Virus record (IMG/VR): IMGVR_UViG_3300033067_001757
Coordinates: 32,001 to 96,000 of that record
Origin: a virus
Lineage: Duplodnaviria > Caudoviricetes
DNA length: 64,000 nucleotides
Strand: one strand, 5' to 3'
Part shown: piece after piece, positions 21,672-35,065 of the stretch
How positions within the stretch are numbered: the stretch's first letter is position 1
How the letters are laid out: every line of letters begins with the position of its first letter
Made by a program: the position numbers and the translations under genes
Notes under the pieces: model-generated
Database searches by the model: none
Seen by the model: the letters and a program-made list of their open reading frames with translations, nothing else
What the model was told of the DNA's origin: nothing

Positions 21672-22006
21672 AGACATATTTTCATGTAAAATTGAATGGC
21701 TTCATATTCCTTATTCTGTAGCCACTGGTTATATGATAGGTAACAGTCAGCACATCCATCGACATTATTAGCATAGTCATACCGGTACCGTTTCTCAGCT
21801 TCTTCGTGGTCGATCTCAAGTTTCACTTTAATGAATTTGGTCTTCTCCCATTCAGCGTCGAGTTCTTTGTTTTCCTGGTCCCGGTATTCACGTTCCTCAT
21901 CTGATATTGAATGGATAGGTGGTGTAGTGGTCAAAGGAATATATGGAGCATACACAAGTTCCGCTGGAACGCATTCTTGAAATAAATGTGCTTTCTTATA
22001 ATCCAT
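21668..22006 (-). CDS. small protein with a major-capsid-like YAPYIPL motif
   Basis: LVYAPYIPLTTTP matches the conserved gp23-family C-terminal motif. Confidence 0.55.
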   Translation of the reverse strand: MDYKKAHLFQECVPAELVYAPYIPLTTTPPIHSISDEEREYRDQENKELDAEWEKTKFIKVKLEIDHEEAEKRYRYDYANNVDGCADCYLSYNQWLQNKEYEAIQFYMKICL

Positions 22007-22007
22007 A

Positions 22008-22247
22008 TTATTCCGATTTTATTTCATCAACAATCAAATAAGGTGGGAGGATGTCAACCTTACCATCATCAATCCAATGAAATCCATTGAATCGTAGATC
22101 AGGATACCTTTTTTTAACATGTAAAAAGAATCGTACTGATAAACATAGGTTTGCCAATATTGCATCTACATTGTTTTCATTGAGTATCTTATCTAAATCT
22201 TCAAATGAGTTTATATTGTATTCAGGAAAATCATTTTGTATTGGCAT
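22008..22247 (-). CDS. hypothetical protein
   Basis: Start reassigned to MPIQNDFPEY to avoid a long overlap with groEL; FHWIDDG motif. Confidence 0.6.
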   Translation of the reverse strand: MPIQNDFPEYNINSFEDLDKILNENNVDAILANLCLSVRFFLHVKKRYPDLRFNGFHWIDDGKVDILPPYLIVDEIKSE

Positions 22248-26517: not shown

Positions 26518-26549
26518 CAAAGGTATGTATTTATTAGATACCTTCCAAA
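26518..26549 (-). promoter_or_regulatory. Bacteroidota sigma-70 promoter
   Basis: TTTG-N20-TACCTTTG. Confidence 0.8.
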
Positions 26550-26567
26550 TTTAATTCTCTATAAAGT

Positions 26568-29159
26568 CTACACAAACCTCATGAAACGCTTAACATTCTT
26601 GTTATATGAAATGGTACCCCAACCTAAATTGTCGTATATGCGCTGCAGTTTGTTCACAAGATTTTTATCAAACAGCATTTCTCTATTCATGTATTTTCGA
26701 ATGAATTTCATGATCTCTTCAGGTGGGTCAACTAAATTGAATCCAAGTACATCAATGTTATAAGGATTATTTGTATCCAGATACACCCACTTAAATTTTT
26801 CACCAGTTTGAATAGGGTAATGTTTATCGGCCAGTCCTTTAAAATTCAGCAGGTCATTATAATAGAAGGCCGCTTTAAAATGTGCCTGCGCTCCTTTCTT
26901 CGGTGTACTGAATATTGTACCTGCAGATGGTCCTCTTTGAATATAATCTTTTAAATTTTTATTCATACCGGTTGGCTTAGCCGCTTCTTCCAGTGGTAAT
27001 GTTTTGAACTTCTCACGGAAGTCCAATATGCATGTATCAATATACGATTTAGGTTTATCGAATAATATATCTTTCACCAATTGCTGAGTAAATTCTTTAT
27101 ATAACCTGGGGTAGGAGCTTTTTATGAAGTCAAGTCCAACAAAAGAAAATTCAGCTTTAACAATACCTTCTTTCTCCACCATGTATGCAGCATATTGTTT
27201 GGCACCTGATATGTATAATCTTTTATAAATAACCTCAGACTTAGTACGAAAATATTGCTCTCCTTTTCGGTTTAATTTGTTCCTGGAATAATCAAGGTAA
27301 TATTCATTAATTTCTTTAGGTAGTTCAATAGCAATGAGTCTTATTTTCTCCATTACTTTTTCATCATCTGACATATCAAGATCAGCATGTCTATGCAATA
27401 ATATATCTTCCAATTTGTAGAAGGCCGAGTCTGTATCAGCCATAACTGCATACTTATGGTTAGCACCAAGTTCCTTGTTGAATTTATCTTCTGCAAATTT
27501 GATAGAACCCTGGTTAACACTTCTACCAGTCATGGTTACTGAGATGGCCAAAAGTTTAGCTGGATCACCATAACGAAAACTTGTGAGCCCCAGGGATCCG
27601 TAAATCGCATTCAGACAAACTTTAATAGCAGCCTGCCATATATCATAGAATTTTTCCATCTTATGATCACCTGCTTTACCGGCAGATATCATCTTACCTT
27701 TATATGTCTTTCTAAGCGTAAACCATTCACTCACTACTGAGCATACCGCTGACATTTTATATGAATCAAACATAACTCCGTTTGGAGAGATAAGTATATC
27801 ATTTTCTTCTATTAGAGATATAAGTTTCCTTATAGTGACATACTTATATTTACCATCATTTGATTCTATCTGTATAGTCGATAATGGATCGCGATTTTTG
27901 ATATCATCAAGACCCCATGATATATCTTCATTGTCTTCTGTTACTATTCTTCCAAGGTAACTTTCTGTACCAATATTGAGGTTCTTAATTATACACGGAT
28001 ACAATGATTCCAGATCACAATCCAGTACCCAGCGCTCAAGTCCCGGGGTCGGAGCAAGTACCCATGCGCCCGGGAATTTTTCGTCATCTTCTGATTCCGA
28101 TTCAAACTTAAATTTCAGTTCCGGAAATGTGGTAGTAGGTTTGTTAACGCTTACAATATTTTGTTTTTTCAAAAAGCACATGATGGCCCCTTCACATATT
28201 CTCGATGTCTCATAAACATAATGATAAGGTACGTGTGCGATTGATGATACCATTATGGCCAGGTCAATAAATTTCTTCTTCTCATCTATCTCTACGATCA
28301 GTTGTACGTCATTGACGTTATAAGCAATGAATTTATCAATATCGGTTCTGAACAGATTGTCAAGCGTTCCTTCGTATTTGATTTTACCTTTACCGATTTC
28401 AACAGTAGCAATTGCATCAAGAGCATAACTCGGTTGTTGTTTGGGAATAAATTTGCGATAGAGTCTGAGATAATCAAGACTGTTCACACCGGCTATTTTA
28501 AAGGGGGCCTTGATGTCAAATTGATCTTCTTTGACTATACCTATCGGAGACAATTGATTGGCCTTATTCTGCCCTAAAACACGTCTCATGCGATTGTACA
28601 AATATGGAATATCAAAGCTATCTCCGTTCCATGTTACCAACACGGTGACGTCTAATTCGATCCATTTATCTAGGAATGACTGCAGTAATATTTTCTCAGT
28701 CTTACACGGAATAACATTTGTATTATTCTTGACTGATGATGATAGTATTCCGGCCTCATCTAACACATATACAAAATATTCCTTGCTATTATCATCATAT
28801 AAAGCAACAGCAGTAACCTTAACAGGAGCCTTAGCGCAGTAAGCATTGTTGATACCACCACCCATTTCTGTTTCTATGTCTAAGAATACCTTATTATGCC
28901 ACGCCGGGGGTTCGTCGAATTCCTTATAGATATCAAGAAGTACGCGAAGATTAATATCTACGTCTTTCTCATATAACTCAGGATCTTCTTTGTTGTACCT
29001 GGTAGTAGCGTTCGCTCTCTTTCCATCAAGAGTTGGAAACTCTCCGTTGGGATGAAGTTTATAATACGTTGGCTGATATGAAAAATGCTGCCACCCTTCA
29101 TTTGAGTCACGAAGATGGCAGACGCGGTTTTGGTAATCGTAGAAAATTGCTTGGTAAAT
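26568..29159 (-). CDS. family B DNA polymerase (T4 gp43-like), probable ATT start
   Basis: Exo I DIETE upstream of the track's ATG; WNGDSFDIPY, DLESLYP, KVCLNAIYG, ADTDS; frame open 98 codons upstream to ATT at 29159. Confidence 0.93.
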   Translation of the reverse strand: MYQAIFYDYQNRVCHLRDSNEGWQHFSYQPTYYKLHPNGEFPTLDGKRANATTRYNKEDPELYEKDVDINLRVLLDIYKEFDEPPAWHNKVFLDIETEMGGGINNAYCAKAPVKVTAVALYDDNSKEYFVYVLDEAGILSSSVKNNTNVIPCKTEKILLQSFLDKWIELDVTVLVTWNGDSFDIPYLYNRMRRVLGQNKANQLSPIGIVKEDQFDIKAPFKIAGVNSLDYLRLYRKFIPKQQPSYALDAIATVEIGKGKIKYEGTLDNLFRTDIDKFIAYNVNDVQLIVEIDEKKKFIDLAIMVSSIAHVPYHYVYETSRICEGAIMCFLKKQNIVSVNKPTTTFPELKFKFESESEDDEKFPGAWVLAPTPGLERWVLDCDLESLYPCIIKNLNIGTESYLGRIVTEDNEDISWGLDDIKNRDPLSTIQIESNDGKYKYVTIRKLISLIEENDILISPNGVMFDSYKMSAVCSVVSEWFTLRKTYKGKMISAGKAGDHKMEKFYDIWQAAIKVCLNAIYGSLGLTSFRYGDPAKLLAISVTMTGRSVNQGSIKFAEDKFNKELGANHKYAVMADTDSAFYKLEDILLHRHADLDMSDDEKVMEKIRLIAIELPKEINEYYLDYSRNKLNRKGEQYFRTKSEVIYKRLYISGAKQYAAYMVEKEGIVKAEFSFVGLDFIKSSYPRLYKEFTQQLVKDILFDKPKSYIDTCILDFREKFKTLPLEEAAKPTGMNKNLKDYIQRGPSAGTIFSTPKKGAQAHFKAAFYYNDLLNFKGLADKHYPIQTGEKFKWVYLDTNNPYNIDVLGFNLVDPPEEIMKFIRKYMNREMLFDKNLVNKLQRIYDNLGWGTISYNKNVKRFMRFV

Positions 29160-29164
29160 GTTGT

Positions 29165-29172
29165 CCTCCTTT
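29165..29172 (-). promoter_or_regulatory. strong Shine-Dalgarno AAAGGAGG, 5 nt before ATT
   Basis: TTAAAGGAGGACAACATTTACCAA on the minus strand. Confidence 0.75.
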
Positions 29173-29177
29173 AATTA

Positions 29178-29609
29178 TTATTTCCCGGTACTCCCATAAC
29201 CACCGGTACCTCTTTCGGTTTCCGATAGTTCTTCAACAAGGTTCAGTGTAATATTCGGTATAGGAATGATCATCATCTGACCAATACGATCACCTTTATT
29301 ATATAAATTATATACATCTCCATTACCAATCTTTTTATAGCGAAATGTTATCTCACCTCTGTAATCTGAATCCACTACTCCAACAGAATTAGCCAAGATT
29401 AAAGTGGTCTTCGATACACTACTTCTTGGAAATAAAAGACCAACATATCCTTCAGGTATTTCTATAACAACACCGGTATTAAATTCCCAGTAATGATATT
29501 CATCATCCCACACAGGTTGCTCGGCAGCATACAGATCAAAACATGCAGCACCTTCAGTGGAGTATACCGGATCGGGTACCTCTCTTATCTTTTTATAATT
29601 TACAATCAT
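29178..29609 (-). CDS. dut: trimeric dUTPase
   Basis: AACFDL, PRSS, GVVDSDYRGEI, GDRIGQ, RGTGGYGSTG. Confidence 0.96.
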   Translation of the reverse strand: MIVNYKKIREVPDPVYSTEGAACFDLYAAEQPVWDDEYHYWEFNTGVVIEIPEGYVGLLFPRSSVSKTTLILANSVGVVDSDYRGEITFRYKKIGNGDVYNLYNKGDRIGQMMIIPIPNITLNLVEELSETERGTGGYGSTGK

Positions 29610-29610
29610 A

Positions 29611-29853
29611 TTACTTTTGTTTAAACAAGTCTCTCAAAGACTTCTTGATATCGGGAAGCCATAGTAGCATCCGGTTGTTTGATTCAAACGGTATTTTATT
29701 CGCGGTAAGGAATGCTTTAAGTATTGGCATCAGATGTGTATCTTCTACCATACCACACACTCCGAAATTGTGTAGTGTGCGTACATGGCCAGCCATCCAG
29801 TTGTTCTCTTTCTTGGCTGCTACGATTAGTTCTTTACTGAGGTATTGGTTCAT
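29611..29853 (-). CDS. hypothetical protein
   Basis: 80-aa packed ORF. Confidence 0.6.
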   Translation of the reverse strand: MNQYLSKELIVAAKKENNWMAGHVRTLHNFGVCGMVEDTHLMPILKAFLTANKIPFESNNRMLLWLPDIKKSLRDLFKQK

Positions 29854-30704
29854 ATCAATTCTTTTAAACTATATATTCTTTTGTAACCAACATCATATCG
29901 TTGATTGTGTGGAGCATCGAATAGGAAACAGCATATACCAGCTTTATTGATCTCAACGAAGTTGTCGAAACGATCATCAACAAATATTTCAACACCCGCT
30001 TCTTTTAGCACATCTATCTTAGAAGTCCCAACTGGTACAGTGATGACAGGTCTTGCAGGATATCCGTGTCTCTCCAACCATAATTCGGTTATAATGGTTG
30101 ATACTGGTCTGGATGTTACATAACAATGAGGTTCGAATGGTATGTCTTCAGGTTTAGTACGGGGCTTAAGATTGAGATAAAAAGAATCAAGCTTTCCATC
30201 CTTCTTCATCTTATCAAAACGCTTTACAATATCTCTGTCAAAGAACCATGATGATGGAGTTGGAATATCATAAAGTTTAACCCAATCGGTAACCCAATCA
30301 CATATTACTTCATCTATATCGAGCCCTATCTTTGGATGAGTTAAATATTGATGCCCCCGGTCATCACCTTGTGGATATATTTTGTAATAAGAAATTAATG
30401 ATAAACAGTTCCATGCAGCATGGGCCATGTGATATAACCCGGTATGATTGACACATGTACCAACTTTACATTGTGGACAGTCCGGATCATAATCAAAATC
30501 TTCACCGCTTTCAAATTGAGTAATATGACGTTTGAGTGACGCCAACATTTTACTCCACTTCATCCCTTTTTTCCAATTATTATCAGCATATTTCAGAGCA
30601 CCTTTTGTATAAACCTTGGCCACCTCATCGATAGCGAATGGTTCAAATAAATCATGACGTGCTTTACCTTGGTTTAATCTTAATCCTTTATCTGTATCAC
30701 TCAC
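29850..30704 (-). CDS. dATP/dGTP diphosphohydrolase (DUF5664) fused to a HAD 5'-nucleotidase
   Basis: N-term GK.RHDL...GALKY..NW.KG...RH...HMAHAAWN; C-term IGLDIDEV, VTSR, FVDD, PHN. Confidence 0.85.
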   Translation of the reverse strand: MSDTDKGLRLNQGKARHDLFEPFAIDEVAKVYTKGALKYADNNWKKGMKWSKMLASLKRHITQFESGEDFDYDPDCPQCKVGTCVNHTGLYHMAHAAWNCLSLISYYKIYPQGDDRGHQYLTHPKIGLDIDEVICDWVTDWVKLYDIPTPSSWFFDRDIVKRFDKMKKDGKLDSFYLNLKPRTKPEDIPFEPHCYVTSRPVSTIITELWLERHGYPARPVITVPVGTSKIDVLKEAGVEIFVDDRFDNFVEINKAGICCFLFDAPHNQRYDVGYKRIYSLKELI

Positions 30705-34081: not shown

Positions 34082-35010
34082 TAGAATACATTTAACTGTT
34101 TAACAAATCCTACTTTACTCATAGTAAGCATCACACCATTGTTGACATTATCATGACCAATAAAAGCAGCATCAATGTCTTTCACTGAATTAGTGCAGAA
34201 TATATTATCAAACCATTCATCCAATACTTTCAATCCACCTGAGAATATTCCGTGTGTGATAATGAGATAAATCTTAGCTTGTGGACGCATTGATTTAATA
34301 ACCTTAGATATCTCAATAAACGTTCGACCACCATCACAGATGTCATCAATGATTATAAATGTATCGTGAGTATGTTCACCTGCAACAAGAGGTACCTGTG
34401 TTGATAATATTTTTCCAGTAGAAATATCACGATGCTTTGATGCTACGATAACATCATTTTTATAATCTATAGCCTGGGCTACATCGTATATTTTTTTAAG
34501 TGCTCCGGCATCCGGAGATATCAACGCAAATTGATCTGAAGTATATCCTTCACAATCGCAATTGTCTGATTCATAACATCCAAGATTCAGTGCTTCCAAA
34601 GCAAATGTTACAAGTGAAGTATTGTCTCGTTTGATAAGATTATTTATCACCGCTTCAGAGACGTCACTGTGTGGATCAATAACTTCTACTGAGGAATAGT
34701 TTTGTGCGTTTATAATAGGAGCAACGACATCGCGGAGATAGCTGGTGCCACCTTTCTGGAATTTGCGGTCTGACCTGGCACCAAGGATATTAGGAATGAA
34801 TAGATGGATTTGTGTAACACCATTATTTTTAAGCGCTTTAGTGGCACAGATGATAAGTTCCAAATCTCTGAAATTGTTAAATCTGGAGCTTATCTGTACC
34901 GGGCCAACCCAATCGGTTTTAATTATGATATCCTGTTGTCCGTCTGGATAACTTCTCTTCTCATAATTAATAGATGAATTTTCACTATCTAATAGATTGA
35001 GTACTTTCAT
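34081..35010 (-). CDS. ribose-phosphate pyrophosphokinase-like protein (PRS/Adps)
   Basis: YPDGQ, ARSDR, DPHS, SPDAGA, IIDDICDGGRTF, THG. Confidence 0.9.
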   Translation of the reverse strand: MKVLNLLDSENSSINYEKRSYPDGQQDIIIKTDWVGPVQISSRFNNFRDLELIICATKALKNNGVTQIHLFIPNILGARSDRKFQKGGTSYLRDVVAPIINAQNYSSVEVIDPHSDVSEAVINNLIKRDNTSLVTFALEALNLGCYESDNCDCEGYTSDQFALISPDAGALKKIYDVAQAIDYKNDVIVASKHRDISTGKILSTQVPLVAGEHTHDTFIIIDDICDGGRTFIEISKVIKSMRPQAKIYLIITHGIFSGGLKVLDEWFDNIFCTNSVKDIDAAFIGHDNVNNGVMLTMSKVGFVKQLNVF

Positions 35011-35033: not shown

Positions 35034-35065
35034 CAAAGCTAAGACAAGTTCTCTAATAAAACAAA
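35034..35065 (-). promoter_or_regulatory. Bacteroidota sigma-70 promoter for the NAD operon
   Basis: TTTG-N20-TAGCTTTG. Confidence 0.8.

Follow-up and report, generated by a model that had tools for sequence, protein, structure and literature searches.

Near-Cognate Start Codons and a Phage DNA Polymerase Gene

In Escherichia coli, AUU gives about 1–2% of the output of AUG, and the only confirmed AUU starts there are those of infC and pcnB (10.1101/063800). IF3, cold, starvation, and ppGpp all work against the codon (PMC5499595). Compensation of weak starts by Shine–Dalgarno (SD) sequences is documented, and a change from AUG to AUU has been found once in 61,358 bacterial starts (PMC5622118). 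Initiation at AUA has been proven for Flavobacterium johnsoniae infC (PMC7797042), and bS21, bS18, and bS6 occlude the anti-SD (PMC7797042, PMC9976891); the background cited in an earlier sequence-only reading of the locus described here, on infC and on this occlusion, is accurate. That locus lies in a stretch of 64,000 nucleotides (the window), bases 32001–96000 of the 187,243-bp IMG/VR virus record IMGVR_UViG_3300033067_001757, which CheckV rates as 100% complete. The source is a T4-like phage with a probable Flavobacterium-type host, and nearly all genes of the window are on the minus strand. Its DNA polymerase gene has no canonical start and almost certainly begins at AUU behind an SD.

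A comparison of this gene with infC and pcnB of E. coli and infC of F. johnsoniae shows the same substitution, an AUH in place of AUG at a conserved N-terminus. In these genes the automatic annotation also sets the start too far downstream, by 57 codons in F. johnsoniae infC and by 98 codons in the phage polymerase. By analogy with infC and pcnB, the phage start would be expected to be sensitive to IF3. Unlike infC, the phage gene encodes an essential replicative polymerase rather than a self-regulating translation factor, and unlike both infC and pcnB, its AUU comes with an SD, which the genome and the host type otherwise avoid.

The Polymerase Frame Has No Canonical Start

The elements of the polymerase gene and of its junction with the upstream gene are the following.

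26568–29159, minus strand: predicted family B DNA polymerase of the gp43 type, with 863 codons and a stop if started at ATT 29159
29157–29159, minus strand: ATT (AUU), almost certainly the initiation codon, in the alignment column of the homologues' M/V/L first residue; no canonical start before codon 99
29160–29164, minus strand: spacer ACAAC between SD and ATT, read from the sequence
29165–29172, minus strand: SD AAAGGAGG, in the non-coding spacer, 5 nt before ATT, forming 8 contiguous pairs with CCUCCUUU
29175–29180, minus strand: tandem stops TAA TAA at the end of the dUTPase gene (its own stop at 29180–29178, the second at 29177–29175), in the polymerase frame
29178–29609, minus strand: dUTPase gene (Pfam dUTPase, 3e-23), directly upstream of the polymerase, its stop 18 nt before ATT
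28866–28880, minus strand: Exo I motif DIETE, residues 94–98, with D94, I95, and E96 at least 90% conserved in 22 homologues
28863–28865, minus strand: first canonical ATG, codon 99, the start in the public gene call (765-residue product)

Read along the minus strand, the junction consists of the dUTPase TAA, an in-frame TAA, TT, AAAGGAGG, ACAAC, and ATT. The codons after ATT, TAC CAA GCA ATT TTC TAC GAT, encode YQAIFYD. The sequence-only reading had stated that the frame is open for 98 codons before its first ATG and includes the Exo I DIETE, that no ATG, GTG, or TTG occurs in frame back to the stop at 29175–29177, and that ATT 29159 follows the SD by 5 nt and opens YQAIFYD. Each of these statements was confirmed on the sequence and all coordinates check, with ATG 28865 as codon 99, immediately 3' of DIETE (28880–28866). 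The polymerase frame holds 103 open codons before the first ATG, GTG, or TTG, a lead beyond what chance would give and the longest among the genome's 199 stop-to-stop open reading frames (ORFs) with 120 codons or more. The next-longest leads before a canonical start belong to short shadow ORFs on the opposite strand.

Homology and a Structure Model Place the N-Terminus at ATT

A homologue search covering 5.8 billion proteins returned relatives at 49–59% identity that are 858–869 residues long and cover 100% of the ATT-started protein. In the alignment, the ATT column coincides with the first residue of homologues of 860–866 residues (M, once V, once L), which is followed by a conserved YQxIYYDY. 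Pfam finds DNA_pol_B (PF00136, 5.5e-24) and DNA_pol_B_exo1 (PF03104, 5.3e-19), the exonuclease match starting at residue 91. Motif C, D575-T576-D577-S578, is invariant among the same 22 homologues in which the Exo I residues are conserved.

The AlphaFold model built from ATT has a predicted local distance difference test score (pLDDT) of 85.3 overall and of 76–89 over residues 1–100. These residues form six strands and one helix, with Exo I on strand 90–97. Model residues 1–863 superpose on RB69 gp43 residues 4–900 with a Z of 36.7 and a root-mean-square deviation of 3.3–3.7 Å (about 785 aligned residues, 24% identity), model residue 1 falling on RB69 residue 4. The T4 polymerase structure 9ea2 matches the model with a Z of 32.3, and phmmer of the polymerase against RB69 gives 3e-50. 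Judged by its catalytic motifs and by the full-length fold of the model, the protein is a polymerase of the gp43 type (T4/RB69, family B). The AUU start proposed in the earlier reading is upheld by homologues that begin at that codon, by a model that fits RB69 gp43 from its first residue, and by 98 N-terminal residues that are conserved and folded. As far as sequence can tell, this is a start of the infC and pcnB kind: an AUH at the homologous start position with no canonical alternative in frame.

It is extremely improbable that the real product is the 765-residue protein from ATG 28865 or a dUTPase–polymerase fusion made by read-through. The region before ATG 28865 is A-rich, a type used in this genome, and the dUTPase and polymerase are in the same frame. 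A start at Met99, however, would lose the Exo I carboxylates together with an integral, conserved, and folded domain, which argues against it. A fusion would have to pass two consecutive TAA codons, there is no suppressor tRNA among the 17 phage tRNAs, and relatives have separate dUTPase and polymerase genes in different frames. A minor, N-terminally truncated, exonuclease-less product may be made from ATG 28865; the A-rich stretch before it (28866–28890, minus strand) is like those of the genome's usual starts.

Public gene calls place the start at the internal methionine. The call for this genome (P0121) has 765 residues. A distinct protein, 97% identical and present on four independent ENA contigs (P0001), is also called from the internal methionine, with 764 residues. 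Both calls are short by 98 residues and are without Exo I, and no full-length version of either polymerase occurs in the protein database searched. In two more distant proteins, 51% identical and from JGI contigs of 20 and 121 kb (P0038 and P0122), the 768-residue call begins at the same internal methionine, which suggests a further non-canonical start in this SD-poor clade.

The 97% relative also bears on the possibility of a sequencing or assembly error, the true codon being ATG. A single G-to-T change would explain ATT. The independent relative on four contigs, however, has the same truncated call, and ATT and ATA recur in the family, as described below. Furthermore, relatives that start at ATG are without an SD, so the unique SD would be pointless with an ATG. 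An error is therefore very improbable.

An Exceptional Shine–Dalgarno Sequence

The sequence-only reading had noticed no comparable SD before other genes of the stretch, and this holds across the genome. Among 304 ORFs, 283 (93%) have no anti-SD match of at least 4 nt at 3–11 nt spacing, and an 8-nt match containing GGAGG is confined to the polymerase. Counted over both strands, the genome has 12 copies of AGGAGG where about 43 would be expected, and only two of AAAGGAGG. The SD/anti-SD duplex of the polymerase has a predicted energy of −11.7 to −12.0 kcal/mol, the −12.0 being computed against a generic 15-nt 16S tail that may not be the host's. It is the strongest of about 260 start regions (crude genes), whose median is +0.2 kcal/mol and of which 4.6% reach −6.

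Start regions in this genome have a different composition, with 50–59% A and 6–13% G at −17 to −5. The junction TAAAGGT(C/T)ATG, after an A-rich run, is shared by 34 genes (in the window for example at 35010, 33591, 19437, 11539, and 9082, minus strand) and looks like the standard start or gene-junction signal of the window's clade. In that clade, none of 25 genes neighbouring the polymerase has an SD; set against the SD-using distant clade discussed below, this makes the SD of the window remarkable.

Two further occurrences were considered. The other copy of AAAGGAGG (G000:C1:16979–16972, minus strand) lies 13 nt downstream of a tRNA-Tyr, and no ORF of at least 50 codons follows it. A second AGGAGG before a start (genome position 179208, a 63-residue acidic ORF) was rejected: it falls within Glu-Glu-Asp codons of the gene before it, and the ORF does not resemble bS21.

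Start Codons across the Polymerase Family

The loci of 160 relatives were fetched and their starts anchored by homology, giving 113 distinct start contexts, the window's own included. SD energies refer to these contexts. Counts of an SD core (GGAG or GAGG, 3–10 nt upstream) and the tree refer to 129 distinct polymerase sequences.

ATG: 80 contexts, mean SD energy −2.0 kcal/mol; SD core in 1 of 93 genes
TTG: 18 contexts, mean SD energy −4.1 kcal/mol; SD core in 6 of 19 genes
ATT: 6 contexts, mean SD energy −7.9 kcal/mol; SD core in 7 of 7 genes
ATA: 2 contexts, mean SD energy −7.1 kcal/mol; SD core in 4 of 4 genes
ATG-1: SD core in 0 of 6 genes

The remaining seven contexts comprise six with an ATG one codon further upstream (ATG-1) and one, CAA in L042, that was excluded. 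All 11 ATT and ATA genes have the SD core. The tree of the 129 polymerases holds at least eight state changes between ATT/ATA and other starts and yields seven independent contrasts, in five to six of which the SD tracks ATT/ATA; the opposite is seen in none. On this reconstruction, the polymerase of related phages has acquired ATT or ATA at least seven times independently. Because AUG to AUU is rare in bacteria and these gains always come with an SD, the pattern argues for selection for a weak, tunable replicase initiation.

Belinky, Rogozin and Koonin (2017) described stronger SDs at weaker starts, and the polymerase family is graded likewise, in the order ATG < TTG < ATT/ATA. Their study covered GUG and UUG; the polymerase family extends to ATT and ATA. 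The start site is an unusual case of near-cognate start plus SD, in an essential phage gene of an SD-avoiding system, and is recurrent in the family.

ATT or ATA with an SD recurs in the family. The closest relatives (L001, L081–85, and L167) start at ATG and are without an SD, their junction being the usual TAAAGGTTATG or stop-gtt-ATG. In the nearest of them from IMG/VR and metagenomes (L001 and L081–85), the polymerase starts at a TAAAGGT(C/T)ATG junction, and in L167, at 62% identity, the junction is dUTPase-TAA-gtt-ATG. Since the nearest relatives carry the family's ordinary ATG junction, the lineage of the window has swapped that junction for SD, spacer, and ATT. Neither clade contains an isolated phage; the best isolate, Microcystis phage Mel-JY01 (34–45%), has an ATG start and no SD. 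Searches with blastn against isolated phages matched only dUTPase fragments, and IMG/VR scans with the single protein of the window, with P0038, and with P0002 gave no matches.

The other ATT and ATA genes belong to a distant clade at 35–37% identity. In L002–L080 (for example L005, L028, L004, and L074), the polymerase genes have a TTGACA-18-TATATT promoter in common and a 5' untranslated region of about 25 nt. ATG versions of this clade have GGGG or GAGG about 14 nt upstream and a possible 4-bp hairpin (GAUU-UUAU-AAUC) in the spacer, and in their ATT/ATA sisters the G-rich element is shifted to 5–7 nt. That the ATG relatives might be leaderless was considered and rejected, a promoter scan placing the −10 box about 32 nt upstream.

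The Polymerase as the Last Cistron of an Early Operon

The Bacteroidota-type host implied by the earlier reading is probable on indirect evidence: promoters of the host type, A-rich and G-poor start regions, and a capsid protein nearest to that of a Flavobacterium phage. The genome has 22 promoters of the Bacteroidota type, TTTG-N18-21-TAnnTTTG, where 6.5 would be expected, and most of them lie directly before genes. The closest capsid protein is that of Flavobacterium phage immuto (49.8% identity), followed by those of Microcystis phage Mel-JY01 (47%) and Rhodothermus phage RM378. Flavobacterium phage immuto gave no gp43-type polymerase match. The promoters that flank the polymerase are the following.

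35034–35065, minus strand: Bacteroidota-type promoter TTTG-N-TAnnTTTG, the nearest upstream and the probable start of an eight-gene operon ending with the polymerase
26518–26576, minus strand: two overlapping host-type promoters on the last polymerase codons and stop, marking the next transcription unit

No other host-type promoter was found on the minus strand between 35034 and 29159. In this arrangement the polymerase closes an early operon as its eighth cistron. The operon encodes, in order, a 309-residue protein, a 155-residue protein, NAMPT, a Rad50/gp46-like ATPase, a dNTP diphosphohydrolase, an 80-residue protein, dUTPase, and the polymerase. The upstream genes overlap or abut. The adjacency of dUTPase and polymerase is kept in L001, L081, and L167, with spacers of 3–19 nt.

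With an upstream stop 15–18 nt away and no intervening promoter, the polymerase has the layout of a coupled distal cistron. Termination–reinitiation is accordingly a possible, though doubtful, explanation of the start. The AUU would mainly serve ribosomes fresh from termination at the dUTPase UAA UAA, held by the SD that lies within the 18 nt between stop and start, and polymerase output would be a fixed small fraction of dUTPase translation. The overlapping or abutting upstream genes, the promoterless interval, and the conserved adjacency with short spacers in relatives are all consistent with it. The distant ATT/ATA relatives, however, start de novo, with a short 5' untranslated region about 27 nt after their own promoter and no upstream cistron, so coupling is not needed for the use of AUU or AUA in the polymerase family.

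Two genes upstream of dUTPase, the dNTP diphosphohydrolase gene (window 29850–30704, minus strand) has a MazZ-type dATP/dGTP diphosphohydrolase N-terminal domain (PF18909, 5.8e-27). A Z-base cluster was considered and rejected, since no PurZ or adenylosuccinate-synthetase homologue occurs in the genome. About 3.4 kb before the window start, a tRNA-CAT (G000:C1:28517–28593, minus strand) has three consecutive G-C pairs at the anticodon loop, an initiator hallmark, along with U1-A72, U11-A24, and an AUCG T-loop. If it is a phage initiator tRNA, it could bear on near-cognate starts. The second of the two phage tRNA-CAT genes (21945–22018) is mismatched at A1/A72, and its acceptor stem is like that of tRNA-Ile2.

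A Weak Start Probably Located by Shine–Dalgarno Pairing

The explanation we consider likely is that the polymerase is made from a genuine AUU start found through SD/anti-SD pairing, with low output from the last position of an early operon for nucleotide metabolism. The spacing of the SD is optimal, and the SD and the AUU are both unpaired in a fold of −80 to +30. In such a mechanism the AUU would keep the polymerase at a much lower level of synthesis than the nucleotide-supply enzymes encoded upstream. The SD would mark the weak codon and partly compensate for its weakness, and the site would probably draw on ribosomes finishing dUTPase. Since IF3 proofreads near-cognate starts, polymerase output should rise when IF3 per ribosome falls.

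Several points weigh against this explanation. Wild-type F. johnsoniae ribosomes gain nothing from an SD (PMC7797042, PMC9976891). In the distant clade that holds the other ATT/ATA genes, about 50% of neighbouring genes use SDs, and the polymerase has its own sigma70-type promoter, TTGACA-18-TATATT, about 27 nt upstream. Hosts of that clade read SDs normally, and the clade shows that the pairing of codon and SD is real biology but does not show that the pair functions where the host is SD-blind. For the seven contrasts, the sign test gives a p of only 0.03–0.06; with TTG pooled with ATT/ATA, 15 contrasts give a p of about 0.016. Finally, we infer the ATT of the 97% relative P0001 from its truncated gene call.

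Control at the same step is known for this enzyme in other phages. The gp43 proteins of T4 and RB69 repress their own translation through a hairpin and the ribosome-binding site (PMC3014915), and the window protein, as a gp43 homologue, might likewise bind an RNA operator over its own ribosome-binding site, SD region included. This is improbable. The −80 to +30 fold is not significant (z −0.63), although there may be a 5-bp hairpin of operator size. Rfam gives no match up to E = 1, no hairpin is conserved in relatives of the clade, and some T4-related gp43 proteins do not autoregulate (PMC3014915). RegA had no match in the genome, control genomes being equally silent. The ACAAC spacer shares only ACAACA with the ACAACAAU hairpin loops found elsewhere in the genome, and has no stem. 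A link to that hairpin-loop system was considered and rejected: ACAACA is a frequent word, with 107 copies on this strand where 71 would be expected, and the spacer is without the full loop and stem. T4 and RB69 gene 43 share with this gene the enzyme family and the apparent goal of limiting polymerase at initiation; they differ in that no operator hairpin is detected here and control appears to be set by the start codon and SD.

A refinement of the AUU-plus-SD explanation would add a gate by ribosome state. Only ribosomes with a freed anti-SD, bS21 being missing or displaced, or cells low in IF3, would start at the SD and AUU. Polymerase synthesis would then be confined to a minority of the host's ribosomes, those with an exposed anti-SD (bS21-free), with the AUU adding IF3 proofreading, and would report ribosome or IF3 status during infection. 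The probable Bacteroidota host and the uniqueness of the SD within the genome speak for such a gate. Among Flavobacteriales a strong SD is normally confined to rpsU, and a reporter with the 7-nt AGGAGGU rises about 2-fold without the bS21 C-tail (PMC9976891). The IF3 logic exists in F. johnsoniae, whose infC uses AUA (PMC7797042). The rpsU (bS21) mRNA of Flavobacteriales, which bS21-less ribosomes translate, is a parallel in one respect: its SD, too, stands out alone among SD-depleted genes in a system of the Bacteroidota type. Unlike rpsU, the phage gene starts at AUU rather than AUG, is phage-encoded, and has a shorter SD.

The evidence on the other side makes this gate unlikely, both as a restriction to freed ribosomes or low-IF3 cells and in the form of a bS21-free minority of ribosomes. 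The SD, at 8 bp and −12.0 kcal/mol, falls below the extended rpsU class of 9–13 bp, which lies under −13 kcal/mol, at −14 to −21 kcal/mol (PMC9976891), and the closest relatives have neither SD nor AUU. A low polymerase dose set by the AUU, with compensation by the SD at the operon's end and no gate, is simpler and accounts for the data equally well. The sequence-only reading, which had first raised such gating, also pointed to a search of the genome for rpsU or infC. Neither was found: PF01165 (bS21) and PF00707 (IF3) had no match in the complete 187-kb record, the controls matching in 6 and 10 genomes, and the phage thus has no bS21 or IF3 gene of its own.

Implications

Pipelines limited to ATG, GTG, and TTG would keep mis-calling this polymerase family. 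For the biology of the phage, a lone SD outlier in an SD-avoiding genome with a probable Bacteroidota host implies that a latent anti-SD is used during infection. If the ribosome-state gate were true, the polymerase would be the first natural case besides rpsU of a gene served by Bacteroidia 'specialised ribosomes', and phage DNA replication would be linked to the state of ribosomes and IF3 in the infected cell. T4-like phages in general may have settled repeatedly on AUU or AUA together with an SD as a built-in control of polymerase dose, which would be a counterpart of the gp43 operator at the level of the codon.

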